DNA of 63,112 nucleotides, counting the filler, from Nemertoderma westbladi (lineage: Eukaryota; Animalia; Xenacoelomorpha): assembly GCA_032718475.1 (NCBI GenBank). It is 3 parts of 3 records of this genome, joined end to end, with 100 filler letters (N's around TTAATTAATTAA, not from the genome) between each part and the next. Parts side by side here need not be neighbours in the genome. Positions count along the whole stretch, not along the records: positions 1 to 25,649 come from JAUCBJ010000101.1; 2 more parts are not named here. One strand, written 5' to 3'. The position numbers and the translations under genes are program-made. Below, in pieces: positions 3,599 to 52,680 of this stretch (position 1 is the first letter of the stretch; each line of letters opens with the position of its first letter). The notes beneath the pieces are model-generated. The model saw only the letters and a program-made list of their open reading frames with translations. It was not told the origin of the DNA and ran no database searches.

Positions 3599-3696
3599 AA
3601 TTGAATTATATTTTATTGATATTATACATTACTGCATTATATGGGCGTGTAAAACTCCAACTGAAATAGTTTTTATCATTAAGTTACAACAATAAT

Positions 3697-8648: not shown

Positions 8649-11600
8649 CTCGTGTCACTGGTATTGCACGCTGTCCGTGCATACTACTTACGGTATAACT
8701 GACGCGCTTACCTTGTCTGAGATCCGTCACGACGTCAGCTATCTTTTCATCCACGTAGCTGTGAGATGAGGCTGAATCTAGAATTGCGTAGATTCTCTTG
8801 CTCCCCTTTGTGCCAGTAATCTTAATCGGAATTACACTGAATCCCTTCAGTTGGTCAGTAGTCAGAAGCGCGATCGATGGTTGTTCGTCTCCATTGGAAT
8901 ATTCGTCGTCGTCTTCTAACTCTTCGTCCGACGATCCGGATTGTTCTGAGAAGCAATCCTCAATATGGGTCACGAAGGTTGGAGTCGTTTTCGATTCTCG
9001 ATTTCTGTAGGCCGCATCACATCTCGCTGCTGCTTCCGGGTGTTCCCTGGCGAAGCGTTTTGTCGGCGTGTGGCTGTCTGTGTGGAGCAGACCGTCGTGG
9101 TTGCGTCCACAGGATGGACAAGTGTCAGTATTTGGGCAATCCTTACGGACGTGTCCGTGTCGCGTACACCGCCAACAAGAGTCCAGTGGCCGTATCTGCA
9201 GCCGCCGTTCTTCCGAGTTTAACTCGCGAAACTGTCGACAACCTCTCAACTTGTGACCGATATACCGCTTGCCTAAATGCTCGCAGTATTGGCAGCCGCT
9301 GAAGTCGGTACTGAGTTGTTGTCTAGTCTGTTTTATCCCAATGGGCGCAGATACCCTACTTCCGTCCGAGAATTGTCGGGTTTCCGTCGATGTGGCGTAA
9401 GTGGCCGTCTTAGTGGATGTTGTCTGGGGTTTTTGTCGGTTGGAGGATGGCAATGTGATTCCTTCTGCCACGATGTGCTGGTCAGTGTAGTTGGATCGAG
9501 TTTCTACTACTGCCTCCCTGGATATTAAAAGGTACACGTCCTCCAGTTTTAAGAATCCGCCCCGCTCTTCTCGCTGGTATTCGATCTTTCTCCACTCCCG
9601 ACGAAGTCGATGGTGGAGTCGTCCTATGATCTTTAATAGGACTGTAGGGGTATTCCCGTAGTCAAGTTGTCCAATGGATCTTAAAGTAGTGATAGCGTTC
9701 CTTATCTCGTCAGCCAGTTTTAATAAGTCGACGGGTTTAGTAATAGCCCCTCCCTTACAGAGTTCCTCTATTACTGACCTGGCCATACTGACTGTACCTC
9801 CGTATATCGAAGTTAAACGATCGTACGCTAGTTCGAAGGCGTCCGGTACACCAACGAAGGTCTCTGCCAAACGTTTAGGTTCTCCTGACAACGTTTGGAG
9901 CAGGTAATTAAACTTCTCCCGTGATGTAAAGGCGCACACGGCGATCTGGGATTCGATATAGTCTACGAAAGTATGCCAGTGTTTTGAGCTACCGGAAAAC
10001 TTCGGTGGTTGTTGTACCGGCAATCCTTGTCTGGCTGCGAATTTCGCTATCTCCTCGGCAACGTTCAGAGTTTCGCGTCCTTGGTTGTTACACTGGTTGA
10101 TATCCCTTCTTGGCGCTTTTCCCTGATACGATGTATGTTTTGAAGGTACCGGTCTTTGTGGTTCCTTCGGGTGTCTATTGTGTTCGAATTCGGAATTTCT
10201 CGAACTGTCGGTGTGACCTTCCTCCAGACGTTCCTCGATCTGAGCCAACTTGTTAACAACTGGTCGCAGGATGTCGGCGAACTGTTGTGTACTGATTGCG
10301 TCCGTTGGGTGTAACGCCTTCTGTGTTGGTGTATTCTGTGGAGGATTGTCTACAAAGGAGTTGTCTGAACGCTCGCGTTTATATTCATCGGCCGCCCCTG
10401 TTCTAAATACCTCGCGTTTCGGGTAATCCGATTCGCTCGAAGTACTACTATCATCTGGATATGGAGGTCGACGTGCTCGCGTCCGTTGCGTCGTACGAAT
10501 TCTCACGTTTCGTTTCGGAACATCGTCCACTGATCTCCGTTGTTCGGTAGGCTCACAAGTCTTCCTCGAAGTCGTAGATTGCGATGTACGCTGGTTGAAC
10601 GGTCGCGTATCCACTAGTCTCCGTTGTTCGGTAGGCTCACAAGTCTTCCTCGAAGTCGTAGATTGCGATGTACGCTGGTTGAACGGTCGCGTATCCACTA
10701 GTCTCCGTTGTTCGGTAGGCTCACAAGTCTTCCTCGAAGTCGTAGATTGCGATGTAAACTGAACCGGTGGGCGAATGACAGCATTTGAAACAACTGGCCT
10801 TGTTGGCCTAAACGTCATTGGGTAAGCGTAGTGTGTAACAGGTTTTGGCGTCAAAGGTGGACTCACCTGTTTAGTCGTCAGTAGTGCAGGTCCGACTAAT
10901 AAACTACTACGATCTGTAATCGGCGGGTTACTTACCTTGACTTTTGGAATAGGCGATGACGTTGCTCTTGGCGGTGTAAACTTGTCCGGAATAACAAACC
11001 TGTGTTCCGTCGCACCATGGATAGGAGAAATATTACTACTACCAGCAATCGAAACAGGTTCCTTAGTCGTAACAGGTGCAAACATAGGAGTTACCTGAGG
11101 GAATCTTTGACATAAGTCCCTAACTAATTGTCTTTCTCGTCCAGGTGCCCCTACCGAACCTTCCTTCATTCGTTCCTGGATTTGGCGGTGCCTTACCTCT
11201 AACTGGTCTAGATCGTGTCCATCTCGAGATCTCATCGATCGATCGCGGGCTTGTAGATCCAGATCTTCCTTCGCGTTGGCTAATTCTCTCGCCTTCTTCC
11301 CGAGTTCGAAATGAAGTTTAACTTCCTTCTCGCGTTGTTCCGTCTGTTGTTGTTGCGCCTCGAGCTCCGCTTGTCTTATCGCTGATTGAGCCTTTATTTG
11401 CCGTCTTTTCATTTCAGCTCTTGCTTCCGAAACTCGCTTGTGTTCTTCCAACTCCGCTGCTCGTCGCTCTAGTTCCGCTGCTGCTGCTCGTCGCTCTAGT
11501 TCCGCTGCTGCTGCTCGTTGCTCCGACTCCGCTGCTGCTGCTCGTCGCTCCGACTCCGCTGCTTGTCGTTCTAACTCAGCTGCTGCCGCTTGTTGCGCTA

Positions 11601-12624
11601 ACTCAGCTGTCGCTGTTCGCTGTGCTATTTCTAGCTCCAACCTTTCCATCTCAGCCGCTTCCAACTCGGCTTGTTCTTGCAGATGAGAGATTCTTGCAAC
11701 ATTCGCAATGCGTAGTTTCTCTTCTTGCACGGCTGCTTGTGCCGTCAACAGTTGAGCTTGTTCCTCCGCTTCCCGTTGTTGTCTGTCGTGCTGTTGTTGC
11801 TGTCTGTAAATTTCTGATGTCACTATACTTATCTCGCCAATTTCGCTGCGAATACTCACTAACGATTGGTCCAGTATTCCCGGTGCCGATTCGATTCGTA
11901 CGGGTGAAGTTTCCCTCGTATATTCCGGCACGGTTTCCGAATCGCCGATGTCTTCGCCGCACATACGTAAGTGGTCCGTCAGATGTTTCAATTGTCCATC
12001 CAATCGGTACAGTTCCTGTTCTTCCTCGGGCTGTAATAATTCATCCGAAACTGACTCACCTAACAACTGGTCCGCTTGTTCCTGTTGTATCTGCCTAATC
12101 GTCGACTTAAACTGAATCAGTTTCTCTCTAGCGATCATTAGTTTCTCGAGGATTCTAAGTTGAGTTTCCATGTCCTGTCTCTGTCTAGCTAGATCTTGTA
12201 GACCAATTAGGTTATCTACGGACTTGTGTACTCTAGTTTGCACTCTAACCTGGAGGGTGTAGAACTCGAATCGAGACATCGGAGCGGTCAACTCGTCTAA
12301 TATGCGATGACCTTCTCCAATACTCCTGGTAATATGCGCCATGTATCCACCGACGCTTCTAACCACACTCTCCTGGCTTCCTGCTGAACTTACCATGTCC
12401 GTTTCCCTGTATCTAGGTTGCGGAACAGTTAGAAAGTCCTCGGTCCTGCCGTCGCCTCGTACTACGGCATCCGGTACTCCCGTTGGATGTACTGGTGACG
12501 CACACGGTGTAGGTTCAGTAGGCTCGCGAGTCTTCCCCTGTTGTTCTTCCGCTGCTGACTTATCCGCATCACACGAGTCATAGTCGGTAGGTGTGTTCTT
12601 CGTATAGTCTTGTTTGTCACTCAT
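8626..12624 (-). CDS. BEL/Pao Gag-protease polyprotein, truncated by the Penelope insertion at ~8648
   Basis: Coiled-coil N-terminus; DUF1759-type PKFSGSSKHWHTF...EKFNYLLQTLSGEP; triple Zn knuckle CQYC...H...C / CWRCTRHGHVRKDC / CPSCGRNHDGLLH; aspartic protease AILDSAS. The stop lies inside Penelope sequence. Confidence 0.9.
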   Translation of the reverse strand: MSDKQDYTKNTPTDYDSCDADKSAAEEQQGKTREPTEPTPCASPVHPTGVPDAVVRGDGRTEDFLTVPQPRYRETDMVSSAGSQESVVRSVGGYMAHITRSIGEGHRILDELTAPMSRFEFYTLQVRVQTRVHKSVDNLIGLQDLARQRQDMETQLRILEKLMIAREKLIQFKSTIRQIQQEQADQLLGESVSDELLQPEEEQELYRLDGQLKHLTDHLRMCGEDIGDSETVPEYTRETSPVRIESAPGILDQSLVSIRSEIGEISIVTSEIYRQQQQHDRQQREAEEQAQLLTAQAAVQEEKLRIANVARISHLQEQAELEAAEMERLELEIAQRTATAELAQQAAAAELERQAAESERRAAAAESEQRAAAAELERRAAAAELERRAAELEEHKRVSEARAEMKRRQIKAQSAIRQAELEAQQQQTEQREKEVKLHFELGKKARELANAKEDLDLQARDRSMRSRDGHDLDQLEVRHRQIQERMKEGSVGAPGRERQLVRDLCQRFPQVTPMFAPVTTKEPVSIAGSSNISPIHGATEHRFVIPDKFTPPRATSSPIPKVKVSNPPITDRSSLLVGPALLTTKQVSPPLTPKPVTHYAYPMTFRPTRPVVSNAVIRPPVQFTSQSTTSRKTCEPTEQRRLVDTRPFNQRTSQSTTSRKTCEPTEQRRLVDTRPFNQRTSQSTTSRKTCEPTEQRRSVDDVPKRNVRIRTTQRTRARRPPYPDDSSTSSESDYPKREVFRTGAADEYKRERSDNSFVDNPPQNTPTQKALHPTDAISTQQFADILRPVVNKLAQIEERLEEGHTDSSRNSEFEHNRHPKEPQRPVPSKHTSYQGKAPRRDINQCNNQGRETLNVAEEIAKFAARQGLPVQQPPKFSGSSKHWHTFVDYIESQIAVCAFTSREKFNYLLQTLSGEPKRLAETFVGVPDAFELAYDRLTSIYGGTVSMARSVIEELCKGGAITKPVDLLKLADEIRNAITTLRSIGQLDYGNTPTVLLKIIGRLHHRLRREWRKIEYQREERGGFLKLEDVYLLISREAVVETRSNYTDQHIVAEGITLPSSNRQKPQTTSTKTATYATSTETRQFSDGSRVSAPIGIKQTRQQLSTDFSGCQYCEHLGKRYIGHKLRGCRQFRELNSEERRLQIRPLDSCWRCTRHGHVRKDCPNTDTCPSCGRNHDGLLHTDSHTPTKRFAREHPEAAARCDAAYRNRESKTTPTFVTHIEDCFSEQSGSSDEELEDDDEYSNGDEQPSIALLTTDQLKGFSVIPIKITGTKGSKRIYAILDSASSHSYVDEKIADVVTDLRQGKRVSYTVSSMHGQRAIPVTRVKLKLLK
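10525..10757 (-). repeat. 84-bp in-frame tandem repeat (~2.7 copies) in Gag
   Basis: TSQSTTSRKTCEPTEQRRLVDTRPFNQR repeated with essentially identical DNA. Confidence 0.95.
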
Positions 12625-14723
12625 TTCGGTAGTTGTAAGTCAAGTAAAGTGAGTGTCAAAGTATCGAGTTTACCGTAAACGGTACTAATTACAGTCATAT
12701 AAAATTAGCCTACCGGCCGATTCTATAGCAGATGGATAAAATTAGCCTAAACGGCCAATTTTACAGCAAATAAATGTCACGGAATAAGTATATAATAAAA
12801 TTAGCCTAACGGCCGATTTTATAACAAATAAATCGGATAACGATATGCGTTATCAAAAGGTAAATTAAATACAATAATACGGACTAATTCAGCAATGAAC
12901 AAAGAAATCATACGGAATGCATAAATACTTGAGACAGTGGAACCCACAATAATTTTAACTAATACGGTAATGCCTAACTTATTTATGCAACTTTCCGAAC
13001 TCACCCACTCCAATAATTCTCCAGAAAAACAGATTCCCAGATACAAACCGGACGTGAACCTTTCCGTTTTTAACGTTGCGGACGAAACGCGATTTTCCCA
13101 ACCAAAGTTGTTGAGTTATCTATCTCCCAAACTTGCTAAACACGGTCTTGCTCCCGTTACAGTCTAGAAATGAGTTCTGAATCCTGAAAAACAAAAGAGT
13201 TAGGTTTTACTTTTACGAAAATTTTGTACCGGTACAATATGGTATTTAAACCCTTTTTAAACACCGGTATTCAATTCCAAAAAATATTTTACACGCGGTT
13301 CAAATCAAATTTTATTTCAAAAAATTAGCACTTAGCTAATCAAATATAAACTTTTACCTCAAAATACCAAATTTTCAAATAACTTTAGTCCTACCGAACC
13401 GTAGTTCAGTAAAACATATTCCTACTAAATGGAAGAGACGGTAACAATACCTGCAATATCCTACTGTAAAGTTTGTGAATCAAATCATAAATCCGACCTT
13501 CTCACCAAAACAGTAAACTCTAAGTAAGCGAATATATTGCAGTATTGATCTCTTATAACCGGTGAGGCAGAAAACAGTCTACGAGCAGACAAACTTCGAT
13601 AAAACAAAATCCCGCGCAGCGAATCCTAAAATCAGGCTGACTCACTGACGGACTAAGGGGCTCGTATACTTTGCCGCGGTGTGATTTATATGGTTGGGCA
13701 AAGAGACGCTAGCTAGGTACAGAGGCAGAGATTTGGAGATGTCTAACTAGCGAGCAAAGTGCAGTAAGGACGAAAGTTAATTTTATATATTTTGAGGTGT
13801 AAATAATTTCTAACGCGCGTGTGTCAATTCTGAACGGTCAAAAGCAGTTTTGCTCCTTCACATATATAATTACTGGGTACAGTGTGCATTTTACGAAATA
13901 TTCTAATTTTGTAACTTGTAGGTCCAATACTCACGAATGATAAGGTTCCTTCCCCTCTTGCGTATTTCCAGGACTCAAATTCAGGCATAAGGTTAATGCT
14001 ACGCCCAGAATTCGGCAATTTTAGGTACCAGGTCCCTGATACTAAGAAGAGATGTGTTAGTTTACTACTGTAGGCGTACAGTTACTAATAGCTATCCTGG
14101 CGTCTTATCTAGAATTTTAGTCACCCAGGTAGGCTGGGTAACTTCCTATCAGGACGTTGGCGGGGACACGGTAGATGTTAGTATCCCTAATAGCCTCAAT
14201 TTATTTGCGCCTAGCTGTAAACTGCCCTACCGCCTGAACGGTACAATCCCAATTCAGGTGAAAACACAGCAACCCTCCTAGCCTACAAGTTCTAATGCGA
14301 TGGACACTGTTGTACTGCAAATAGTCGCAAACGCACCTGTACTTAGCAAGAGTTAGGCGTACAGTTTGCTGCACCCTACCAATTTGTATGCTTCGTACCG
14401 ATGTGCCTACGTCCTATCTGCGTACTAGTATCTGCCTGCTCTTTCCCTCTCCCCGTAGGAATATGAAGGTCTACTGCGGTTTTTCCTGAATCAAGACAGT
14501 ACAGTCCCTAAGATGTAATTTTAGGCTCACAGCGTGTCACTACTTCTACCTTTTGATCTTTGGTCTTAAACTTAGGTAGCAAGGCGTCGAACGCTGTCTA
14601 ACCTTTCAGGCGATGGGCGAATAACTCAAGATGGTATTGCGGGTTGTCTCTGGTCTACATTCCCCCGATGTTCCCGTTCATTGCTGCGGCCCGATCTCTA
14701 GCCGGCCATCCTATCCTTAAGTT

Positions 14724-15023
14724 TGTTCACCGTAGTGAATCCATGGTGAAAGAAAAGCAGATAGCGGTATTTCTGAATTTATTGCAGATAATAATACAAA
14801 ATGTAATCTGAATACTAATGACAGAATAAACAAATATCAGAATAATACAGAAGATTAGAATGAATAAAGATAGAAGTGAACTAATGAACGAAATCGCACC
14901 TTTATATACCAAATTTGTGCTGCAATCAATCGAGAAAATTCTCGATTGTTCTATAGGTTCTAACGGGTTTTTAAAGATAGCTATTGGTCCAGCTAATATA
15001 TAACTTGCACGACATTGGTTACA
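14724..15023 (-). repeat. Probable 5' LTR (~300 bp) of the minus-strand BEL/Pao element
   Basis: Minus strand reads TGTAACC...CCAAT...TATATAAAG...AATAAA...GGTGAACA; lies ~2.1 kb upstream of gag. No second copy in the window. Confidence 0.55.
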
Positions 15024-15121
15024 ATCAAATAACTACAGTCTCATTGGTACAGACAAATGCAATTAATTTGTAGCGGTCAATTTAAATGAGTTGAAATTCT
15101 GCACAAAAAATAATTCGCACT

Positions 15122-15191
15122 TACTAGGATTCGAACTCAATACCTACTACACATATAATTTCCAACGCTCTACCGACTGAGCTACTGAACC
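15122..15191 (-). pseudogene. tRNA-derived sequence / Pol III type-2 promoter (SINE head or tRNA relic)
   Basis: Minus strand GGTTCAGTAGCTCAGTCGGTAGAGCG (A box / D arm) ... GAGTTCGAATCC (B box); anticodon arm does not pair convincingly. Confidence 0.7.
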
Positions 15192-15563
15192 ACTTGACCA
15201 ATAGGCGTACAAATGATAGAACAAATACGAATGAGAACTCAAAGCAATCTTTTACAAAGTTAATTCGAATAAAATAAAATTTTGAAAATCCACGGCATTT
15301 AGGGAATATAATTCTATAGATAAATTTCATTCCGCAAACCATGGTTTCAAACTGCACAAATCAGAATTGAATATAACGTTCAATCTGACAACCTCGTTAG
15401 AAACATTTGTAATACCTCAACCGGTTGTTGAATATATCCACAGCAATGTAACACAAGAATCTGCAAACAAGCTCCTTGGTATGTCAACACTCAAAGCTTC
15501 CTTTTTTGTTGATGAGTGTCTGTTTGATTTTCATAATATTTCAAACTCAATTCTTTTAATTAT

Positions 15564-16610
15564 TTGGAACGCATGATTCATCCCCTCAAAGATGAATCTC
15601 GTTTCTTCAAACTGTTTGGATATGATGTACTAACTTTTATTGAACAATTGAATGAAATAACCTGTTTCTACAACAACAGCAAAGCACATTATTTTGGTTT
15701 TAATTTTAAAGTTGTTCGTTATTCGAAAACATCCCCACTGAGACCTATTGATTTAATACAACTAGAAGATACAGTAGATGGGGGTTGGTTAACCATTTCA
15801 GACACTGCGGCTGCTTTACTACAACATTATATAAACATTTGTCGTCCTTACATCAATCCAATCTCGTACATTGTCTTAGAGCCAGATAACTATGTTTCTT
15901 TCGATAGTTCTACTTTTGGTTATATCACAAATATTAATAATAAAAGAAACATTGCAATCGCGAGCGGAGTTGAGGTTGATTCAAACAAAGTTATTGTTTC
16001 CACAAGAGATGCACTTTTACTCACGAGAAATGAACTTCTTAAAATTTCATGGTTCGATTCTGCGGTCGAAGGATACGAATGCTACGATGAAGTCAACCAC
16101 GAAGAATTAATTTCAGATCGAATAAAAATTTATACCGCTTACAGCTGCGAAACCCTCGAAATTTCTGACAGACGCTATGACTACATGTTCTCTATTGACA
16201 ATACAGATCGCGCCCGAGAAGCACTCTCTGAACTAAAGTCATTGGCCAACAATAGTGATTATGAACCAAAGCAACTACAACTACCTAATCACCAGTGTCT
16301 TAATTTATATGAATCAGTAGCGGCTTTCATTTATTCATTCAAAGGCGAAGCTTATGTTGGCATATGGCCCGTCATCAAAAAAGATTTGAAATCAACCACG
16401 TTTCAGTTTACCGACGGTTTAAATATAAAAGCGAGTGATTTCTCCAACTTTCATCCCATTCAACAATCCACTTCCTCCCATTACTATCTCACCTGGCTGT
16501 GGCTGTGGCTGTGGCTGTGGTTGTGGCTGTGGCTGTGGCTGTGGTTGTGGCTGTGGCTGTGGTTGTGGCTGTGGCTGTGGTTGTGGTTGTGGCTGTGGCT
16601 GTGGTTGTGA
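15564..16610 (+). CDS. Hypothetical intronless protein (probably frameshifted from 15367-15576), 3' end invaded by microsatellite
   Basis: ~310 codons of normal composition in AT-rich DNA; no firm domain recognised. Confidence 0.4.
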   Translation: MERMIHPLKDESRFFKLFGYDVLTFIEQLNEITCFYNNSKAHYFGFNFKVVRYSKTSPLRPIDLIQLEDTVDGGWLTISDTAAALLQHYINICRPYINPISYIVLEPDNYVSFDSSTFGYITNINNKRNIAIASGVEVDSNKVIVSTRDALLLTRNELLKISWFDSAVEGYECYDEVNHEELISDRIKIYTAYSCETLEISDRRYDYMFSIDNTDRAREALSELKSLANNSDYEPKQLQLPNHQCLNLYESVAAFIYSFKGEAYVGIWPVIKKDLKSTTFQFTDGLNIKASDFSNFHPIQQSTSSHYYLTWLWLWLWLWLWLWLWLWLWLWLWLWLWLWLWLWLWLWL

Positions 16611-16734
16611 CTGTGGTTGTGGTTGTGGCTGTGGCTGTGGTTGTGGCTGTGGCTGTGGCTGTGGCTGTGGCTGTGGCTGTGGTTGTGGTTGTGGCTGTGG
16701 CTGTGGTTGTGGCTGTGGCTGTGGCTGTGGCTGT
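16494..16734. repeat. (GGCTGT/GGTTGT)n hexamer microsatellite, ~40 units
   Basis: Directly visible. Confidence 0.98.
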
Positions 16735-17812
16735 AAGAGGGCTTTATTTAATTATGCGCTTGAACTGCTTCATAAAATACAATGCGAAAGAATGCAAACT
16801 ATTGCAAGAGCAGATGTTTATTATAATTTCTCGGACGAATTGATGTAATAACGAAGCTGTAGGTTTGAATAATTTAAACTCTGTGGCAGGCCCCATTCAC
16901 GCGTTGACGTACAGTATAGGATTCGATGTTTGGATTAGTCATACCACATCTAATAAGAGCCCGAGCAGCCGCAGATTATTGAGGGATTGACTCAGGGCCA
17001 AACTGGCCCACTTTATTTTCTTGAAAGGGTAAATTATGTTTTGGGCCTCGTTCGCATGTTTATATTTAATTCTACCTTTACCTACTGTACAACAAAAATA
17101 ATACAAATGTATTGTATATTGTAATGTACAGTGCCTATTGTGTTGTATATTTCGTTTGCTGTAGTACAATTTATTCATCTCGCGTCCCTATCTGATTGAT
17201 TTGTATCAAATTAAATTGCCTTTGGCAACATTATTTGATACAAATCGATTGATTAAACAATTAATTAATTGTTTAATCGACCAATTAATTAATTGTTTAA
17301 TTAATTAATGACCTAATTAACACCCAAGGTGCGAAGTTGGACTAAACTGTCGCCGAGGGTGGCATACTATTACTACTAATGTTATTTTAGTGATTATTTA
17401 GTAGATTAGTGCGATATATTAGTGTTTATTACGTACGTAATTACTTATAATATATATTTAGTGCGACGGCGAGAAAATAATTATTTTTCTCTTTCCTTAC
17501 TGTCCGTATCATATTATAAATACGTGACTACAGTAAGATGAAATGTCCGTACTTCTTAAAGTACAATAAAGCCACTACTATATTCAAGTATTATTAGTAG
17601 GCAGAGTATTAGGAATGCAAAGTTCAGATCCTCGTGTCTCGGCTAAACCAAGCTCTGGGTAGACCTTGGAAACGACTTGCCTCTTCACACTGACATTGCT
17701 TCGTGCGATATTGCTCTTCTACCTTATATTAAATAATACATATAGTAGCGTGATGTCCCTCTAACAGTAGCGTAAAACGCAAATAAATCTGTTAAACCTT
17801 TTGACCATCTGT

Positions 17813-18072
17813 AATTCTAGTCGATTAAGATATCGCGGCACCCACCGATATACTTGAAAAACCAATTCTAGAATCAGTGGTTAACGTCCCCAGACAAGCT
17901 CTGGAATAAATCGGTGCCCATCTTAAATATTAATTTAATATTTATTACAATCTGTAAAATTCAGATCCGTTAACAATTCTAGTCGATTAAGATATCGTAC
18001 CACTTACCGATACTCTTAAAAGACAAATTTCATAGAATTAAGGATCCTATGTCCCCAGACCTGCTCTGGAAT
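17813..18072 (+). repeat. Imperfect direct repeat, 2 copies, period ~162 bp
   Basis: AATTCTAGTCGATTAAGATATCG...GTCCCCAGAC...GCTCTGGAAT at 17813 and 17975. Confidence 0.85.
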
Positions 18073-18889
18073 CAAATTGTGTCAATTTTAACATCAAATA
18101 ATAAAATTCACGGGAATAAATTTAAATTCATATTTTAAATGAATTTCATAAATTGTCATTTTGTACAATTTATAACATTCCCAAAATTCCATTAATTAAT
18201 AGATCATGGGAGCGGAGATTCATCCTATTAAGTGTATTAGAGTGCGAGAATCTCCAACATATAGTCAATAGCCGATAAAATTAATAAAATCATGCATAAA
18301 GAGGATATTGACAACTAAAGAATTATTATTAAATAGCATCCCAGATCTGTATGCATGAGAATTACCCTAATTCTACCGCTAGCATTCCATAATGTCACCA
18401 TAGCAACACCCACGCTAGAATTAGAAGCAAGTTAAAAGAACAATAGAAAGCTTGTCCCATTGCATAGCATAGAGAATATAGCACACTGCTAGTATCCAAG
18501 GATACACAGTAATAACGTGACATTCTGGAAGGCACTGACTAACGGACAAGTGGCCTGTATGTGTGCAGTTGGTGACAGTTGTGTGGAATTTGTGCGTTTA
18601 TAGGTGAATGTTACTGCTAAATTATGTTTACAGTAGCTAGTCGCAATTGTAAAAGTAGCCCAACTCTCCTATAGAAAGAACCTAAGTGGATCCAAGCCTT
18701 TGGGACGGACAGTGGAGTGACTTGTGCCGGTTATCGTTGTCGTGCTGTTGCTACATGTTGGCGTAAACACCGCGACGACGGTACATCGGCGCTGAGAATC
18801 CCACTGTCCGGGGGCAAAGAGAAGTAGGCAGCGACGCCCGCTCGCCTAAATATAAACTTATTTGATATTAATAAACTCAGATAGCAGAT

Positions 18890-21800
18890 ATGACGGAGTT
18901 GATAGAAGATGATCTTGGTATTAGGGAGCGATATACTCTACCTTTACAAGCATTTGTGGATAGCTTAATACGCGGTGAAGCCGATCCAACCATTACGGAG
19001 GACGATGGTCGTTATATCGAACCGCCGATGTCCCAAGAGCAACTCGCGCGTGAATTGGACTATCGAAAATTCACCACTCGTTATACGAATCGTAATGGTA
19101 CGTATATGGACTTCTTAACGACCGGCCATCCTATCGATTTACATGATACGGACGATGTAGATACAGAGAGGGAAATGGTTCTATTTAAATATCATACCCA
19201 GCGGAGTCGTAACGATAAACCGAGAATAGATCACGAAAATTCTATTCGTAATAAACTGGAAAGAGAAAACATTGAAGAACCGGATAAACGTATCGACTTC
19301 AACGAATACCTAGAATTTTTGAGAGAAACCTATCTCAACATCGCTAGTCAGCAGAACTTAGAGACTCGATATCCTCAAGGCATACACCACGACCCTGTGG
19401 TAGAACTCAAACGGCTCTATTTCACTATGATGTATCTTACCGCCGATCGTCCCCTACCTGTTATCCCGGATAGTTTTGAACAAATGGAAGAATATTGCAA
19501 AACTGGAGAACGTTCACCCGCGTTTCCTCTACAGGACGTACGTCTTTGGTATTATTGTGACGAATGCCCTAGACCCAACCAACAAACTGAAAGACACAAA
19601 CATCCGCGGAGACGTTGCGCTAAACATAGTTTTACGCGTTACACTTACGGGAGTTTCGAGCGAAACCTGTTCGACATACCACCCACGATCGCTCGTCTTA
19701 AACGATCACTGAATAAACCCATGATCAGAGTTCCGGAATACTCGGTCAGGCCTCCTCATTCCCTAGTGAGACCTCAAACTCTTGATCCTAACAGTATCAC
19801 TGATCCTCCCGAACTATATTCCTTGTTCAAAGACTTAGTGTTACCCGAACAATTAATCGGTGGTGCTCCGGTAGTGGGTTCGTTAGACATCCGCCCATCC
19901 TACTTAGCCGGATTGGGACGCGGTCAGCTAATATCGCCCTTTGATCCTTACAATCCTCCAGGATTAAACCCGATGCAACCCGCCACGGAAGTCGAGGAGA
20001 GCGTTATAAGAAACGCTTTAGACGCCATTCGACAGAAAATCGGAAAGGGAACACAAGATTGTTTAGAGAAACGTAAACTACAGCAACAAGTACAATCGGT
20101 GAAGGAGTTAGCCTTGCCACAGTTCGATAGAGAAATCCAAAACCTCGAGGAAGACATCGAGCTTGGATGCACGTATTCTCTACAAGAATTTTTAGATGAA
20201 CGCTTACAGAGACAAGCGGAAGAAATTCTACTCGAGGAGAAACACACGAAACTGGAAGAGAGAGAAGAAGCCGCTTTAGCCCAACCGGAAGCTCAAATCC
20301 TCATGACGGACCTCTACTCTAAAACCATTCGTCATCCCTCGATGATTCCACATTTCGGGGACAAGCTCTTCGCGACGATACAACCTCAACCGGTTGATAT
20401 CAGTACAGGATCGCAAAATCTTATCGCTGACGCCCCTATGTTACAGCGTCCGCCGATCGAGGCCGCTTGTGTTGACGGTATACTCGTTGAACCTCCGGAC
20501 AATCGAGCGGATCTTGTCCGTCGTATGGTACACGATGTCAACATACGCGCTAGACCCTTACAGAACTCGTTTTATGGGATCAAAGACCACCCTTATTACG
20601 TTAATCTGACTCAATATTATATGGTAAAACCAGAAGACCCGACACATAATTTAAAGTTTCTACCACTGATAAATCCTCTAGACATTGTCGAACTCGAACA
20701 ATTGCAGAAACATCTGGATCAGTTAGTAAAGGTAAACTCATTTAGAAAACCATATAACATTTCTCGAATCGAGAAAGATATAGAACCTCCTTATAATCTC
20801 GATGGATTTATTAAAACTCGATTAGTCCATTGGAATCTAGATGTATTATTTGAAGAGGAGAAAATACAAAGATATGGAAATGTGGAGACGTATACCACTC
20901 GGCATATGAAGTATAGTGATCTCCCCGACGCTAACCAATGCGCCACCTTGTGGCATCCAGTAGGGATGACCCTAGAGAACGCCACCAAGGAGTGGAATGA
21001 AACTCTTAATGTTATTGAGATGTATGGAGTTGTCACCTACGATAATGAAGGTAGCGTTCCGGTCGGAGAACTAGGAACTACGCGCATGATCCACATACGC
21101 GGATTAGCTGGTTCTACCCACGTGTTTACTCGAGCATGTTCCGACGTGATTGATTATTCTTTTGAAACTCTCACCGAAACACAAAAGAATCTCCGACATG
21201 GACAATTCGAACTCGCGCAGCGTTACGTCATTGACACCGAACGCAAACCGGCCATGGGCATCGATGGATCGATGTTACCCCAGCCCGTACTCGAGATGTT
21301 GTTCAACGAAAGAATCCTTAAAATCGGCTCAGCTGTTTATGGAGATCTCCAAAACGACTTTCGGAATATGGAGAACATTCCATACCCTTTCGTTGATACT
21401 CAGCTGATTGCTCCCTGGGCAGAAGGTCGAGGTTTCTTCCGCACCATGTATGCTAATACGTCTAGCAACATTACCAAGGTGCAACGAACTTCCATCGGAC
21501 ATCTTGCCTTTCAGGAATACGGATGGAATTTCAAAGTCGGAAATCCCATTAACTATCAACAAGTATACGGAGATCATTATTCTCGCTTGTACTTTGATGG
21601 ACCATTAACCGCACCTGGCGCCGTGTATAGCTTCATGAGTGTTCCACTCCGTCCCTCCTTAGCTATATACACGATCTTTGAAAACACCGCACTTGCCGGT
21701 TGGCTAGCCGATGTGTGCAGTCGTACTATACGCGCCCATCCATTAATACTTGGGACCAAACTCGCTAAGCTAGATGAACATAATAAATTCATCTGTTTTG

Positions 21801-23143
21801 AATGTTTCCGGCGATTTTTAACCCCGTTCCGCAACGTGGATAGCCAATTTAAAGACCGCGCTTTGACCAAGCTCAGCCTAAGAAACTCAGCTGCAGAGAA
21901 GTTGGATAGCGCTGGATTCGCCGTTTTCCAAGAGATTTGTATATCGAACTTGCACTCCTCTGTTATACAAAGACCTCGAATCCCCACAGGTTATTCTGTC
22001 GTGGAAATTCAGACAATAGGTCCACCTGAAGAGACAGACGCGCCCACTTCAGCTATGCACTTGGAAGACGAACCAATATGTCTAGAATCTGAAGAGATTC
22101 AGCCTATCGCGCCCCGGAACAGCGACAACGATTACATCATAGAATGGTATCAAGGTCCACAGTGTCTCACTGCGTACGATTATCGACATGCCAACTATGT
22201 TTCCCGGCAACGTTGTCGGTTATGCGCATCGAGAGACCACGATACGCCCATGGACACCAACGTCCGCTGTTCCTATTTCCAAGAACAACCGACTATGGAA
22301 ATTTATTGCGCATATTGCAGACTCAATAACTTGCATATCTTTGCGGTTTGCCCTCAATTTATGACTCAATGTCACCATTGTCAACTAAAGGGACATGCCA
22401 GTTTCGATTGCCCTTTTAATCACGATTTGGAAAGCGTAGATGAAATGATCACACTACGTTACATCAGAGCTTGGGAAGCGAACGCTGATTTACATTGTGA
22501 TTCGCGCCATCGCTATTATCCCGGACGCGCTTACGAAGGAGTTTATGCGTTCCATCCTTATCTATTCGCTTCGGTTGAACAGAAATCACGCATATCAAGT
22601 TACGAGCTACTGAAGCGCGTCGGAGAATGTATTTCAACCAAATTCGTACGCAAATTTCTCAGGAGTGTTAATCCTAGCGACCTTCATTCCTATAACTTAA
22701 TCAATTATATCTGTCAGGATCCGGACTATGGAGACTTGTTTGTTAACTCACACCCCGAGTTACAGGAAGTATATCGACGGCCTTACGAATACCGAGCACG
22801 CGAACGCGAGTTGGAAAGGACCATTAAACCCCGGAGGTTTCTAACTGCCTATGGTCCACCCACGGCCCTCATTCAGACCACTCGTAAAGGACCCGTAAGA
22901 GCGGCTGTCTTGAAACGAGCTCTCAAAGCCGTTAGACCTCTCTCCCCTGACGATGATGTCAATCAACCCGGTACTTCGACTGGCGGATACACCGACCATA
23001 ATCCTACACCCTCTGATGCAATCATATTGCACCCTTCACCCAGGAGTTATAGCCCTCCTTGTAAAGTGGCTCGCCCCAAAGAGAAAAGGACTCTGGCTAG
23101 CTTTAAAAAACTGCGTAAACGCCGTCCACGCAAGAAAGACTAA
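18890..23143 (+). CDS. 1417-aa LTR-retrotransposon accessory protein with DEDDy (WRN/EXD/RNase D-like) 3'-5' exonuclease domain and Zn knuckles
   Basis: ExoI VVTYDNEG; LPQPVLEMLFNERILKIGSAVYGD (ExoII); FVDTQLIA; SIGHLAFQEYG; PLRPSLAIYTIFE (ExoIII-like); CRLC..H, CAYC...H...C, CHHCQLKGHASFDC; basic C-terminus. Intronless and intact. Confidence 0.8.
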   Translation: MTELIEDDLGIRERYTLPLQAFVDSLIRGEADPTITEDDGRYIEPPMSQEQLARELDYRKFTTRYTNRNGTYMDFLTTGHPIDLHDTDDVDTEREMVLFKYHTQRSRNDKPRIDHENSIRNKLERENIEEPDKRIDFNEYLEFLRETYLNIASQQNLETRYPQGIHHDPVVELKRLYFTMMYLTADRPLPVIPDSFEQMEEYCKTGERSPAFPLQDVRLWYYCDECPRPNQQTERHKHPRRRCAKHSFTRYTYGSFERNLFDIPPTIARLKRSLNKPMIRVPEYSVRPPHSLVRPQTLDPNSITDPPELYSLFKDLVLPEQLIGGAPVVGSLDIRPSYLAGLGRGQLISPFDPYNPPGLNPMQPATEVEESVIRNALDAIRQKIGKGTQDCLEKRKLQQQVQSVKELALPQFDREIQNLEEDIELGCTYSLQEFLDERLQRQAEEILLEEKHTKLEEREEAALAQPEAQILMTDLYSKTIRHPSMIPHFGDKLFATIQPQPVDISTGSQNLIADAPMLQRPPIEAACVDGILVEPPDNRADLVRRMVHDVNIRARPLQNSFYGIKDHPYYVNLTQYYMVKPEDPTHNLKFLPLINPLDIVELEQLQKHLDQLVKVNSFRKPYNISRIEKDIEPPYNLDGFIKTRLVHWNLDVLFEEEKIQRYGNVETYTTRHMKYSDLPDANQCATLWHPVGMTLENATKEWNETLNVIEMYGVVTYDNEGSVPVGELGTTRMIHIRGLAGSTHVFTRACSDVIDYSFETLTETQKNLRHGQFELAQRYVIDTERKPAMGIDGSMLPQPVLEMLFNERILKIGSAVYGDLQNDFRNMENIPYPFVDTQLIAPWAEGRGFFRTMYANTSSNITKVQRTSIGHLAFQEYGWNFKVGNPINYQQVYGDHYSRLYFDGPLTAPGAVYSFMSVPLRPSLAIYTIFENTALAGWLADVCSRTIRAHPLILGTKLAKLDEHNKFICFECFRRFLTPFRNVDSQFKDRALTKLSLRNSAAEKLDSAGFAVFQEICISNLHSSVIQRPRIPTGYSVVEIQTIGPPEETDAPTSAMHLEDEPICLESEEIQPIAPRNSDNDYIIEWYQGPQCLTAYDYRHANYVSRQRCRLCASRDHDTPMDTNVRCSYFQEQPTMEIYCAYCRLNNLHIFAVCPQFMTQCHHCQLKGHASFDCPFNHDLESVDEMITLRYIRAWEANADLHCDSRHRYYPGRAYEGVYAFHPYLFASVEQKSRISSYELLKRVGECISTKFVRKFLRSVNPSDLHSYNLINYICQDPDYGDLFVNSHPELQEVYRRPYEYRARERELERTIKPRRFLTAYGPPTALIQTTRKGPVRAAVLKRALKAVRPLSPDDDVNQPGTSTGGYTDHNPTPSDAIILHPSPRSYSPPCKVARPKEKRTLASFKKLRKRRPRKKD

Positions 23144-23208
23144 CTGTTTAGAGTATTTATGTATATTAGAAACTGTGATTTTGTATATTTTATAGACTCA
23201 AATCCCAT

Positions 23209-24450
23209 TTTCTGGGAGCGGTGTAAAAGCTTCTGTGGGATATAACTGGCCCCTTTGCTTCGCAATCCAGTTTCCCCCCAGGCGCTGGAATACTCTAAAA
23301 GGTTCTCTAACGGTATATATATTCCCCTCGCCCGCAAGGTACCGTTACAGGTGTTTTAACGGACATAAAAGTCATTCGTCTATATACCTGCTTTGGCGGA
23401 CATGGTAAGGCAAAAAACCCGCAATGCACCAAATACCTTTACACGGCTTGGCCTTGATGATTCAGATTGCGACATCTAGCAGCTGGTTGCTGGCATGGAA
23501 ACAGCCATTGGACGCACGGTTCTTTGTTTGGTTTGAGCCAATCAGAGCGATTTTTTCTGTCGACGTGTAGATATTCGGCCGATGATACTAGGAGTGTTCA
23601 ATCTTACGGTTTTTTCTTGATACTTTGTGTTGTTGCTATCTAGGCCAGGAACACCGGCTCTAGAGTCAATTCGTTTTTCATACTTTAGGAGAAACATTAG
23701 TAGGCTTAAATTATAAAGCGTATAACTGTTATCAATTCAATTCACACATTACTTATCTTATCATAACAACTGATCGCAATTCAGTTTTACTTTATCGGTT
23801 CAATATACATTATTATACTGCTATTTACTATTGTTTGGTTGAATATTATTTGGAGAACATTTATAAAGAACCCAAATTTCCCAATTTTCTTGATACACTA
23901 CAGGTTAGAGAGACGGGTTATATATAGCGATTGCGACTTATATTGTTGTGGTTTGTAGTGAATTTAATGCTATTTGGTAAGCCCTACATGAGTCAATTGC
24001 TGTTCGCTTTATATATGATAAAATTCATTGACGGTCGGCAAATTAGTGAGCAGTATTGTGTGTTACCGGTAGTGTGCCTGATGGTGATTGATAACTAAGC
24101 ATTTCCTAAAGAATGCGCCTCATACGTGAATTATAAGCCTTACCGACTTACCGTTGTGATTAGTATAAGTCATATCTCTGTTTACCTAGATAGAGCGCCA
24201 CGTCCTAAAGGGACTGTTAATATTTCCCGAAATAATATTAGTCAGAAATTATTTATTAACGATCAATCGAATAATACAGTAAGCTTACACTGCAATAATA
24301 ATCTAAGCCCTCAGAATCCAGTCTCCCGGGTATATCCAGCGGGTGAATGGACGCGCACTAGGCTGGCTTCTGCTAATGTTGTGTTTATTGGTATTAAATA
24401 TTTGTCATCTTCTAAAGTCTATTTATAAACCAAAAGACATATAAATTTTG
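23209..24450 (+). repeat. PPT-like tract (TTCTGGGAGCGG) then long LTR starting TGTAAAAGC at 23222; right end approximate
   Basis: Repeat copy at 25541 begins exactly at the TGT; a diverged homolog at 51175-52140 has the same GGGAGCGG / AAAGCTTCTG junction and shared blocks (GGGACTGTTAATA, ATCAATCGA). Confidence 0.7.
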
Positions 24451-24652
24451 GCAGGTTAAACTGCTAAAGGTCTTCAAAAGCGCGTACAACTACCCAGTTC
24501 AGCACTATCACGGGAACTTGTATATTCTTGCTGCCTGTTGAAATGGAGATGGATGCAGACCGAAATATTTATTTTAACGGTTGTACTACTGTATTAGGCC
24601 TAATATTGCTTAGTCAAAGCAGAAGAGCCGAAAAAGGTCGAAAAATTAGACA

Positions 24653-25540: not shown

Positions 25541-25649
25541 TGTAAAAGCTTCTGTGGGATATAACTGGCCCCTTTGCTTCGCAATCCAGTTTCCCCCTAG
25601 GCGCTGGAATACTCTAAAAGGGTTCTCTAACTGTATATATATTCCCCTT
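25541..25649 (+). repeat. Second copy of LTR start, runs into gap
   Basis: Near-identical to 23222-23328; no PPT in front. Confidence 0.9.
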
Positions 25650-43960: not shown

Positions 43961-44689
43961 GCCTCTTATTGGAGGCAACTACATGCTCCTCTTAACTGGA
44001 AAAAAGAAGAGAGATTCAATGTACCAGAAGCAACAAGGAAGCTCATGTCTACCGGACGAATCCAGAAAGCTCTCCATTATGTTCTTAAATAGACTGGTCG
44101 GGTGTTTCAAGGAAATGTGTAGTAAGTATCCCATATGTACGCTGTACGGTACCCCACACGATTATAATCTTAAATATGGAACGATGTCAACAATGTTAGA
44201 TGCAATATCCAACATTACTTTTGTTAAATTCTATATATATTTGGTATACCAAGCCTGAAGAGAAGAGGTTTCATTTGAAGCGCCTCTCAAGTGCGTTGTT
44301 AAGTGCCATATACTGTACTATGCATTATTTCGGTAATATTCTGGTATGCCTGCTAATTTTTGCAATGTATATTGAGACGCAATATAGCATTGAATTTGAC
44401 AGAAAGTCCCTTTCGAATACTATATATATCTCAAGCAACAGTGTAAGACATCAACCATGCCAACCATGTCATAGAGTTACTCTCCTTTGAAGTCCAGCTG
44501 CTGCTGATCAAGAACAGGAGAGAAGAACTTCGAACCTAAGGTTAGTGAAAAACCAGTAACCAGGCGCCGTTCAACTCCTGTGTGTTACACTGACTATGAT
44601 AGTCAGACTTCCCCAGAGGAGGATACAGAGAGAGATTCCTCCGACCTGTATTTCTCCCAAACAATCAACGTCAAGGTAATAAAGGTATA

Positions 44690-49467: not shown

Positions 49468-49479
49468 TGGATGTATATA

Positions 49480-50670
49480 ATACTGAAAGATCCAAAGGGA
49501 ATAACTTTGACTTTACCGTGCTGGTTTTTGGTTTAACCATCTCAGCTCCCTTGGTTTGTCTGATCTCGCTAGGGGTCAGATGCTTGGGCCATTCATTCTC
49601 TGATTGATTTAGAAAGTCAGGGCCACTTAACCAACAAGGAGTTTCAGTAAGTTCTTTGGGTGTGGCTCACCTTCTCAGGATTTAGCTATATCGGCAGGAA
49701 TTATAGCGCCCGGGCAGTGTCTCCATTGTTGGATAGTTGTTCGACTGAGAATAATCGCAAACTCTGTTGGTAACGAAGACACTAAATTAGCAGACTTGAT
49801 TGGCGAGATTTTCCAATACCTGTACAGCGTTGGTCCAGTAGAAGGTTCTTTCCAGTTTAAAGTTAATTTGTTCGGTGATATTCTTCCCTATAGCAGTGGC
49901 ATATAAGGCAGCCTTTAATTCCACTTGAGGGACTCTCAGTTTGTTGTTAATGAGTGCGACTTTGATTCCCATAGGGGTTTCCACTCTTAAATAGGCTACC
50001 ACACCTATTCCAATATCGTTGGCATCTCCAAAAACATGGGGCTGAAGGGAAGGGAGAACATTTCCAAAATATGTGTGAGAGATCTTCTGAGATGGAAGTG
50101 AGTCTTCCCCCTTGTCATGGATCGTCCCAAGAGTGGTTTTCTAACCATATTTGTTGCACGAAGTACTGAGCGACTAGGATTACTGTACTAATAAATCCCA
50201 AAGGGTAGAAGTAGGTGCTCAGATTACTCAGACAAATACTTTTTTTTCTAATGAGATTGTCACGCCATTTCAGTTGGAAAAACATCAAGTCCCTTTTGGT
50301 ATCCCATTTCAAACCAAGGGTCTATGACCGCTTTAGGGAAGGAGTCTCTAGTTTGGTCAGTGGTAGTACGGACCACTGAACAAGCGTTAGATGGGCTTGA
50401 TATAATACCGAAAGCCTGGATGTTCATCCAATGCTCGACGGGATCTTGACTGAAGTCACACTTATAGAAACATACCTTCTATGTCTGAGGGAAACGCAAT
50501 TGAGTATTGCCATAATCTTAGTAATATCCCCAATAAAAATCATAAAAGATTGGGTCCCGGCAATAGTTCTGAGTTTAGGGACTGCCCTTTATATAGCTGA
50601 ACCATTGAAGACTACCTGGACTTTATTCGGCTTACTGGGTTTGGGAACGTATTGATGGGTTAAATAATAC
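49480..50670 (-). pseudogene. Decayed BEL/Pao pol (RT start, Peptidase_A17/RNase H region)
   Basis: KPSKPNKVQVVFNGSA, KWDTKRD, YPLGFI, SWDDP, HVFGDA, VAYLR, ELKAA, FYWT, FVTNRV, QWRHCP...PAD, LSGPDFL. Confidence 0.85.
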
Positions 50671-50689
50671 TTACCCGTACTATAATACT

Positions 50690-52140
50690 TACGCCACCCC
50701 TATGGACACCAGAAGGGAGACTCTTTTAGACCACCCTAATGAGATACAGAGTAAAGAAGTCGCCAGTATTTGATCCTAGGATTGGAAAACTGGTATGCCC
50801 AATATTTCAGAAGGAGTCCCATTGCATTGAATACTGCTCATTCTGACGCCATAAACCCTATATCGCAAAAACATAGAAGCAGGATCCAAAGGGAAGGAGA
50901 GGAAAGAGTTGACATTTGACCCTAGTCTACCAGGTACCTCTACTGGTGGTTATACTGATAGAAACCCGGTTCCTCCTGATGCAATTTCACTGCATCCATC
51001 ACCTGAGAGTGGTAGCACTCCTTTCAAGGTGACTTGACCAGGGGAGAAAGAAACTATTAAGAAGTTACATAAACGAAGATCCAAAAAGAATTGATTAGAT
51101 ATAGTGAATTGTTTGGAGTAGTGAACTTGTTAAAAGTAGAAACTTTTAGTGTAAATATTAAACTAAGTCCTACTTTCGGGAGCGGTTTAAAAGCTTCTGC
51201 ATCCTAAAATGCACATTTCAGTAATGATAAGCTGGTCCATACTCCAAACTTCCCTAAGTGACAGATCCATACGCCCCGACGTGTTCAATTGTAGTACACA
51301 CCAAAAGATAAGCAGCCAATAAAATCTACGTTTCATTTTCTTGGCTCAGATTTTCTTTATTAGATCAACAAAGACGCATGGCAGTTTTTTATTGGTAGTT
51401 GATGAGCAATGTGCCATGACGTCATGATTTCTTGGAATTATTAGGTTAGTTAAGCTTGGACGGAAGCTCATTCTTCTGTTTTGCTGATAGCAGAGCAGGG
51501 CGTTTTTGCCTATTAACATATTGGCTGGATGCGTAGAATCATAGTTAGTTACCTAACCGGCTGTATACCCTACCGACTGGAATACTGCTTTATTGAACTG
51601 ATTGCTGATTATTGCTGTATTTGTATATTATATTTGCCGATTATCTTATGTAAATATTTCTTCTTATATGGATGAATAATTGCATCCTTAACTGATTGTT
51701 ATTTTCATCCTAAGAGGTAAGCTTTGGCTTTGGGGGTTAATTAGCAATTTCCTGGTTCACATCAAGTGGAGTGTGGAGTGGAATATTATTTTGTAGCACC
51801 AACGCATGTGAGCCTATAAACATCCTTATTCATGAACAAAATTGTCTCAAGTCAGCAGTTCATACACCAAAGTGTATTTCAGCCCGACTTATATATACCA
51901 TGCCCATAGGTGTGCAAAATATGATTTTTGTTAGTATTTTTAATTGCTATAAGACAATTACAATCAAACGGGACTGTTAATACTATCCCTGTACGTTAGC
52001 ATAGTTATTGGGAATTATATTTCGAGAATCAATCGACTGATGCACAAGCAGCCTATTTTAGCTGGCCGATATATTTCAGACTCCCTTTGGGTCATACGCC
52101 ATGCTAGTTTGATTTATATTTGATGTATATATATAAGTTG
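50690..52140 (+). mobile_element. 3' end of a relative of the 18890-24450 element: ORF tail, PPT, long LTR from 51186
   Basis: PGTSTGGYTDRNPVPPDAISLHPSP...KKLHKRR matches PGTSTGGYTDHNPTPSDAIILHPSP...KKLRKRR; TTCGGGAGCGG then TTTAAAAGCTTCTG. Confidence 0.85.
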
Positions 52141-52680
52141 GCAAAACTAAGCAAGATTTCTGTGATAATTGAAATAGATTGTAAGGTCTCTTTCTCTTAA
52201 AATACGTAAGCATTCGTTGTTATAGTCATTAGTATCTAGGATTATAGTGTTACCAGATTTATCACCCCCTACAGATACGAATAATATTAGTATTACATTT
52301 GAGAGACTTGAGAGAACAGTCCGTTGTTGCTTCGTAAGGTTATACTAAGTTACATTTTTGGGTGAGACATTGTTGTGGTTGACGTCTTGTAGTTGGTGTG
52401 AGCACCTGGGTCGTTGGTGGATAACCGAGATATATCAAATATTTCTGCTTCATATGTATATCCAACCTCCTATCATTTGTAATTGGTGTGAATGATGAAA
52501 TTAAATTAAAATTTCAATTCATTTTTAATTAATTGCAGATCATTGGTAGAAAATCATCAAATAATTAAAAGTAAGACTGTATTGACCATTTTCATTTAAT
52601 TTTGGGTGTTTTGAATAAAATTAAGAGCTGTGGTATTGATTTCATAAATTATCTAATTATCATAAGTTCCATAAATAAAC

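Follow-up and report, generated by a model that had tools for sequence, protein, structure and literature searches.

Third open reading frames (ORF3s) that encode a DEDDy-type exonuclease are known from bdelloid rotifers, where they have been described in the elements Juno and Vesta and in Terminons (Rodriguez, Kenefick and Arkhipova 2017, PMC5408684). A domain of the same class occurs in Dada DNA transposons, for which 3'-end processing has been suggested (PMC3706591), whereas the BEL/Pao long terminal repeat (LTR) retrotransposons (Belpaoviridae, Semotivirus) are described as carrying gag, pol and env-like genes only, the env-like gene being the third, within 4.2-10 kb (PMC8742986). Here we analyse a 63,112-nt stretch from the xenacoelomorph Nemertoderma westbladi (assembly GCA_032718475.1), hereafter the window, which consists of three contigs joined by N spacers and carries on its first contig an intact accessory ORF of 1417 amino acids. 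Our findings point to an apparently undescribed family of BEL/Pao ORF3 genes that joins a DEDDy nuclease to triple zinc knuckles, with an unusually large member in the window. The original prediction made from this DNA had likened the ORF to the ORF3s of Vesta and Terminons, a parallel that the published description bears out and that also takes in Juno (PMC5408684).

Set beside the rotifer proteins by published description and not by sequence, the family resembles those of Juno, Vesta and Terminons in its RNase D-like DEDDy fold, its intact acidic residues, the absence of a membrane segment and its form as a separate ORF downstream of pol, in the slot of env (PMC5408684). Juno and Vesta are Gypsy-like, whereas the pol partners here are of BEL/Pao type (Peptidase_A17, DUF1759, DUF5641). 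Three knuckles and a conserved aromatic segment accompany the nuclease here, whereas the rotifer account, in the passages that deal with such motifs, mentions a Cys-His-Cys motif only in the ORF3 of Vesta2/5 and gives the catalytic motif as DEED, compared with DEDD or DEDE here (PMC5408684). Dada elements likewise keep all four acidic residues, but within a DDE transposase and not in a stand-alone retroelement ORF (PMC3706591). With Belpaoviridae the related loci share the order protease, reverse transcriptase (RT), RNase H and integrase, a primer-binding site (PBS), a polypurine tract (PPT), TG...CA LTRs and a third gene placed before the PPT; they differ in that this gene encodes a nuclease-knuckle protein and not an env-like one, that the window copy is without gag-pol, and that complete relatives, at 10.4-10.9 kb, lie slightly above the described range (PMC8742986). 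Cellular EXD2, WRN exo, Nibbler/Mut-7, RNase D and Rrp6 and the RNA binders EXD1 and Egalitarian are alike in fold (Z 8.6-10.3; EXD2 7.7 on a partial match), although structural identity is at most 18% and the protein here is transposon-borne, multi-copy and fused to nucleocapsid-like knuckles. An exonuclease or exonuclease-knuckle ORF in BEL/Pao was described in no paper found by a literature survey that judged most papers by title and the start of the abstract, excluded supplements, Repbase, GyDB and subscription journals, and also covered PMC6338049, PMC6431247, PMC12451622 and PMC12440569; the word "exonuclease" is absent from the available text of PMC3118150. Deposited but unannotated family members may exist.

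The original prediction described an intact ORF ending 78 nt before an LTR that begins TGT, with an ExoI DxE, an ExoII D, a variant ExoIII YxxxE, three Cys/His knuckles, an N-terminal CxxC/His cluster and a basic tail, and every one of these was recovered in its place (Table 1). Translation is free of stops from 18890 to 23143, the stop codon is followed by 78 nt and then by TGTAAAAGC at 23222, and the catalytic residues are D718/E720 (nt 21041/21047), D819 (nt 21344) and Y927-x3-E931 (nt 21668/21680). Among the three knuckles only the third has the canonical C-x2-C-x4-H-x4-C arrangement; the tail holds 13 K/R among the final 25 residues, and residues 401-500 form an E/K/Q/R-rich stretch. The view that the ORF is neither pol nor env also stands, as a Pfam scan of the whole ORF gave no family at E<=1, and no RT or integrase, while its separate domains gave no significant match. 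No membrane segment was found (best 19-aa hydropathy mean 1.21), and by that hydropathy maximum and the Pfam result there is no signal peptide, membrane anchor or fusion-protein homology of the kind expected of Env. The 640-aa N-terminal extension has no homologue by Pfam, PDB sequence search or phmmer (whose query began at aa 130), and a conserved basic tail or PGTS motif was looked for across the family and not found. The size, noted in advance as unusual, is specific to the window lineage, as relatives measure ~650-900 aa.

The ORF is real, multi-copy and under purifying selection. Contigs from all five sequencing runs cover it far more deeply than the unique flanks; in run X3 single contigs over the ORF reach depths of 5,100-14,000 against 130-190 on unique flanks, where depth is not a copy count, and some contigs are ~15% diverged, which indicates diverged subfamilies. 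The dN/dS-type check that had been proposed came out in favour of constraint. Of the 41 listed ORF variants, which are among the best-supported rows of two variant tables of ~2400 and ~830, 29 are silent against 12.3 expected (p ~1e-7), with 27 at third and one at second codon positions. Silent changes make up 19/29 in the N-terminal extension, 7/7 in the nuclease and 3/5 in the C-terminal part. Contigs of 4/5 runs also carry an internal deletion, 19259-22062, that removes the nuclease domain and keeps the knuckles, at high depth in run X5. A joint from 23903 to 18693 in run X5 was rejected, as the loose letters resemble a diverged version of 18665-18693.

The predicted DEDDy-type fold is supported both by profile search and by structure modelling. 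A profile of the family alignment (A4, 19 rows) retrieved human EXD2 from the PDB sequences (E 4.8e-11) as its only match at E<=0.001, while single sequences retrieved nothing there for the nuclease or the N-terminal part. An AlphaFold model of the window domain from 19 sequences reached a mean local confidence (pLDDT) of 55, with 70-87 in the core, and a predicted template-modelling score (pTM) of 0.58; a single-sequence model, at pLDDT 32, was not used. In an exhaustive structural search DEDD nucleases occurred throughout the list, with Z 10.5-9.3 for diDNase, Pol I exo, RNase D, WRN, Nibbler, EXD1 and Rrp6 over ~155 aligned residues at a root-mean-square deviation of 3.7-4.9 (best Z 10.5 at 4.4). 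The model thus supports an RNase H-like DnaQ/DEDD fold for the window domain. The catalytic set D-E-D-Y-[D/E] is intact in 18 of the 19 rows of A4, with ExoI DxE present in 19/19, ExoII D in 18/19 and Y927 invariant. The ExoIII acidic residue is E in the window protein (E931) and in the sequences P0002, P0003, P0004 and P0008, and D (YxxxD) in 14/14 rows from genomic loci; on this alignment YxxxE reads as a conservative variant of the canonical YxxxD. Two further ORF3s, L060:7425-8169 and L009:884-1183, both outside A4, are without the ExoI acidic pair, and L058:1513-2838 is a knuckle-only ORF3 that directly follows a BEL integrase.

A phmmer search of 1.84 billion representative proteins returned one match, P0002 (648 aa, E 5.6e-6, 30% identical across its nuclease region), which as a query found P0003; both have DxE, D, YxxxE, three knuckles and the shared post-knuckle segment, and P0002 matches HIV nucleocapsid (E 1e-4), in keeping with a resemblance of knuckles 2-3 to retroviral nucleocapsids. 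A DNA pattern for knuckles 2-3, built from the knuckle spacing of the window protein, returned 64 metagenome loci, which a knuckle-domain profile splits into 20 family loci (at least 89.9 bits) and 44 others (at most 29.3 bits). That profile had been trained with 16 of the 20, and each of the remaining four is closely related to a training member or to another of the four. Few assemblies are represented among the 20, and with some loci near-duplicates of others (L007/L045, L017/L051, L015/L034) we count about nine distinct lineages. Twelve of the 44 others were scanned, and several of their ORFs are Gypsy gag-pol. L033, a pattern match at 19 bits, was counted as non-family; it has a 905-aa ORF (L033:6855-9569) of similar knuckle spacing beside three other long ORFs, and the three L033 ORFs scanned, this one among them, gave no Pfam match. 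By homology the window protein is tied to the BEL ORF3 family through P0002, an intermediate that scores 70.6 bits on the nuclease part of the loci profile, and through its knuckle domain, which matches at 27.6 bits, whereas non-family matches reach 16.3 at most. Other searches added little: word-indexed searches found no homologue of the window protein among proteins of 779-2480 aa and none with the family profile among those of 1541-4400 aa, the latter being weak evidence against pol fusions; scans for loci in metagenome, viral and prokaryote collections with the protein or alignments found nothing, and so yielded no ORF3-less BEL outgroup; and the ESM Atlas gave PF01612 clusters at 0.93 (166/256 features) and 0.86, as leads only.

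Most relatives of this gene lie in BEL elements. A BEL pol ends directly upstream of ORF3, on the same strand, in 15 of the 20 family loci and in none of the 44 others, and all 15 family loci with a recognisable pol are BEL; neither pol type nor the nuclease entered into the scan pattern, which therefore did not build this association in. The five without pol comprise three with too little upstream DNA (L017, L034, L063), one with less than 1 kb (L009) and L015, which has a gag knuckle and no pol. Pfam found Peptidase_A17 in 13 of 14 upstream ORFs scanned, and DUF5641 with an integrase zinc finger in the 14th. A GGGGGAG tract followed by TGT lies after ORF3 in 11/11 loci tested, and L041 and L018 show a purine tract, a TG..ACA LTR and a TGGCGCCC primer site around the junction into gag. 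The env position in a BEL/Pao element that had been claimed for the window ORF therefore holds for its protein family (15/20 loci, with L041 and L018 LTR-bounded), though it is not visible in the window copy, which has no pol upstream. Trees of pol and of ORF3 for the 11 loci that have both agree on four main groupings, and identities in the two genes correlate (rho 0.89) over a span of 44-81% for pol and 29-84% for ORF3, a concordance that points to an old, vertically inherited accessory gene. In seven loci (L007, L018, L022, L028, L041, L042, L045) a GT-AG intron of 113-168 nt interrupts ORF3 at one shared position just before ExoI (~7036-7203 in L022), so that ORF3 there needs splicing. The intron is precisely absent from L020, which groups with L018 and L022, and from more distant lineages, and the pattern suggests one gain followed by precise loss; a shared spliceosomal intron in a retrotransposon gene, missing in one close relative, offers a handle on expression. 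Captured DEDDy nucleases are in this way extended from rotifer Gypsy-like elements and Terminons to BEL/Pao, as an old, selected, vertically inherited nuclease-plus-knuckle gene in the third-gene slot that is invisible to Pfam.

What such a gene does for its element is a matter of prediction, and we propose tentatively, giving the proposal rather less than an even chance, that it is a DEDDy nuclease-knuckle accessory gene of the BEL/Pao lineage that trims RNA 3' ends and blunts small-RNA silencing of its own family. In this mechanism the ORF3 protein would be made separately from Gag-Pol, from a spliced subgenomic RNA; AG acceptors, as had been pointed out, are present at 18880-18887. The knuckles would bind the element's RNA, and the nuclease would shorten RNAs engaged on that RNA from the 3' end. 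Such trimming would blunt host small-RNA silencing, an effect restricted to the element's own family. Granted the rest of the explanation, silencing as the target falls only a little short of an even call. A host-facing role is favoured because the DEDDy class recurs in LTR, Penelope-like and DNA transposons that replicate by unlike chemistry, and because the RNA-binding half is retained longer than the catalytic one: the knuckle module is still there in members that have lost the nuclease motif (L009, L060) or have none (L058). The family is soluble and offers natural active-site, dead and nuclease-less variants, which makes it directly testable whether transposable elements (TEs) encode factors against the pathway of PIWI-interacting RNAs (piRNAs).

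Several considerations weigh against this proposal and against the kinship on which it draws. The activity, substrate and expression of the window protein are predicted only. Since the scan pattern came from the window protein's own knuckle spacing, its knuckle match is partly circular; a nuclease profile from the loci alone gives it 5.3 bits, compared with 4.1 for the best of 500 shuffles, and 27 bits are reached only when relatives of P0002/P0003, which are context-free sequences, are added. In the tree a long branch leads to the window protein, which falls outside the clade formed by the BEL-verified ORF3s. Foldseek pointed to the same kind of fold but gave no match to the modelled domain at E<=0.001, and its best rows were Egalitarian. 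TE-encoded piRNA suppressors have been argued to be disfavoured (PMC6719617, PMC5168828), and a 2019 review, in the section concerned, had no example of a TE-encoded factor that counteracts the piRNA pathway (PMC6719617). The rotifer DEDDy ORF3s are described as bringing no clear copy-number benefit (PMC5408684), and Egalitarian, by the account of a recent preprint, keeps all DEDDy residues and needs none (bioRxiv 10.1101/2025.08.03.668247), a precedent by which intact catalytic residues are no proof of catalysis. The margin of counter-silencing over a replication role or a non-catalytic adaptor is small.

A role in replication is the rival that survives best, though we consider it somewhat unlikely. 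Here the knuckles would bring the protein onto genomic RNA inside the virus-like particle, and the nuclease would trim the tRNA primer, RNA:DNA intermediates, or mismatched or untemplated cDNA 3' ends ahead of integration. EXD2, the closest solved relative by sequence, acts on both RNA and DNA. Knuckles 2-3 resemble retroviral nucleocapsids, and a search with their spacing also retrieves Gypsy gag nucleocapsids; the stable co-inheritance of ORF3 with pol fits as well, and 3'-end processing has been proposed in the published discussions of both the rotifer and the Dada enzymes (Rodriguez et al., PMC5408684; Kojima and Jurka, PMC3706591). Yet ORF3 is separate, often intron-containing and unfused to Gag-Pol, described BEL elements manage with gag, pol and sometimes env (PMC8742986), and L009, L060 and L058 have lost or lack the nuclease motif.

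Those same members without catalytic motifs speak for a further rival, a non-catalytic RNA adaptor of Egalitarian or EXD1 type, in which fold and knuckles would bind element RNA and either route it, for instance to the germ-cell nucleus, or shield or sequester it, catalysis being dispensable. Egalitarian-RNA complexes lead the Foldseek rows (E 2.6e-3), the E/K/Q/R-rich stretch of the window protein would suit such a role, and Egalitarian is reported in the preprint to transport I-factor RNA with its DEDDy residues kept but dispensable (bioRxiv 10.1101/2025.08.03.668247). The Foldseek scores are not significant, however, and Egalitarian ranks 20th by Z (8.6), behind active nucleases; catalytic residues intact in 18/19 aligned rows, with ORF3 identities down to 29%, also argue against dispensable catalysis, and we regard the adaptor as unlikely.

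The remaining rivals turn on the structure of the window copy, which also counts against the counter-silencing proposal. The BEL pol profile detects no pol remnant in the 12640-18890 interval upstream of the ORF, its only matches above 5 bits in the window lying at 8671-10710, 49565-50050 and 50438-50590, all on the minus strand; gag-pol in cis is thus missing. As in BEL/Pao, a purine tract directly precedes a TG-starting 3' LTR candidate, but no 5' copy of this candidate was found, nor the pair of identical LTRs with a PBS. The unit defined by depth (~17380-24488) has ends without a common repeat, the longest shared word being 10 nt, as in shuffles. The purine-tract nonamer at 23213 recurs once, at 18207, directly after CA. 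DIRS, Ngaro or Penelope-type ends were rejected, with no matching repeats and no Rfam match. The window copy may be truncated or chimeric, may owe its shape to an assembly join, or may be non-autonomous. Its predicted BEL context survives in part. A link to the neighbouring BEL gag (8626-12639) was rejected, as this gene lies on the opposite strand in unrelated flanking DNA and a separate depth block. On contig 2, however, a BEL pol fragment runs on the same strand into a paralogous ORF3 end, a purine tract and an LTR start; this piece is rearranged, and so counts as supporting evidence and not as proof. Within the window the BEL link rests on that piece together with distant homology.

The unit could instead be non-BEL, or a self-standing non-autonomous element (17380-24488), that drew its nuclease-knuckle module from a common pool in the way that Juno, Vesta and Terminons did, with the BEL pieces of the window as bystanders. 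The want of an upstream pol and the long branch of the window protein are compatible with this, as are the TGT start and ACA end of the unit, with 5-bp flanks agreeing at 4/5 positions even though the ends have no repeat in common, and ORF sharing between retroelement classes has been described (PMC5408684). Against it stand the exclusively BEL partners of the 15 family loci with recognisable pol, the contig-2 arrangement, and L015, an instance of a BEL ORF3 element from which pol has been deleted; we judge it improbable, and BEL ancestry of the window copy, on the sequence evidence, quite probable. That the ORF is a host gene, or lies beside the LTR by chance, for which the missing pol in cis could be cited, is very improbable in view of an intronless, multi-copy 4.2-kb ORF with high depth in X3 and diverged subfamilies, the purine tract and TG start 78 nt downstream, and the relatives that, as in L041 and L018, carry ORF3 inside LTR-bounded elements. 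A fuller version of the counter-silencing proposal, in which a BEL/Pao clade has long carried, instead of env, an RNA-targeted exonuclease that destroys or over-trims piRNAs on its own RNA, as a transposon-encoded antagonist of the animal piRNA pathway specific to its own family, and in which the window member gained a 640-aa domain unlike any known and spread by way of copies that lack pol, is more doubtful than the proposal itself.

Table 1. Features of the accessory ORF, its surroundings and the contig-2 paralogue (window coordinates)
Feature	Position	Strand	Basis or remark
Accessory ORF (ORF3-type), 1417 aa, intact	18890..23143	+	Stop-free translation; purifying selection
CxxC/His cluster, aa 223-246	19556..19627	+	Inside 640-aa N-terminal extension
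DEDD(y)-fold 3'-5' exonuclease domain, aa 643-960 (predicted)	20816..21769	+	Alignment A4, EXD2 match, predicted model and fold search
Three Cys/His zinc knuckles, aa 1109-1174	22214..22411	+	Motif reading, alignment
Conserved post-knuckle segment (W/F-E-x-x-A-D ... aromatic-rich)	22412..22621	+	Common to family
Basic C-terminal tail, predicted nuclear-localisation or RNA-binding segment	23066..23140	+	Similar tail in contig-2 paralogue
Purine-rich tract, putative PPT	23213..23221	+	7 purines in last 10 nt; same 8-mer before contig-2 LTR start
3' LTR candidate, TGT...ACA, ~1.27 kb	23222..24488	+	Start repeated at 25541; depth at flank level after ~24490; right end inferred
Second copy of start of 3' LTR candidate, 97% identical	25541..25648	+	Cut by contig end; purine tract not before it
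High-depth non-coding leader contiguous with ORF	17380..18889	+	Starts TGT; no pol remnant; no repeat common with 3' LTR candidate
Contig 2: paralogous ORF3 C-terminus, 3' UTR, purine tract, LTR start	50926..51199	+	63% aa identity over 60 aa; inverted duplicate within 48184-49460
Contig 2: broken BEL/Pao pol fragment (RT end, RNase H)	49565..50590	-	Then same-strand ORF3-paralogue arm, purine tract, LTR start

The contig-2 piece forms part of a larger structure (48184-51254) in which inverted arms of ~560 nt surround the broken BEL pol fragment; the left arm is split by 715 nt of inserted DNA (48281-48995) that has inverted ends and TTAA-like sequence on either side. Neither a knuckle remnant nor longer ORF3 homology was detected in the contig-2 arms. 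The BEL gag near the ORF belongs to a separate element (8626-14660, minus strand), a 1337-aa gag with DUF1759 that is cut off in the protease, with an apparent purine tract and TG start near 14660. An intact 1110-aa ORF at 3670-7002 lies amid long direct repeats and has no significant Pfam match; by eye we take it to be a Penelope-type RT with a C-terminal GIY-YIG-like segment. A P-element/THAP9-like transposase fragment lies at 1687-2829 (TNP-like_GBD, E 4e-7), and a 357-aa ORF at 15537-16781, with no Pfam match and at intermediate depth, runs into a long (CTGTGG)n-type repeat. Pfam matches elsewhere in the window, at 44603-46753, 56348-57781, 61422-62735 and 52675-54366, comprise an RT ORF, two endonuclease/exonuclease/phosphatase ORFs of long interspersed nuclear element (LINE) type and a cytochrome P450 match.

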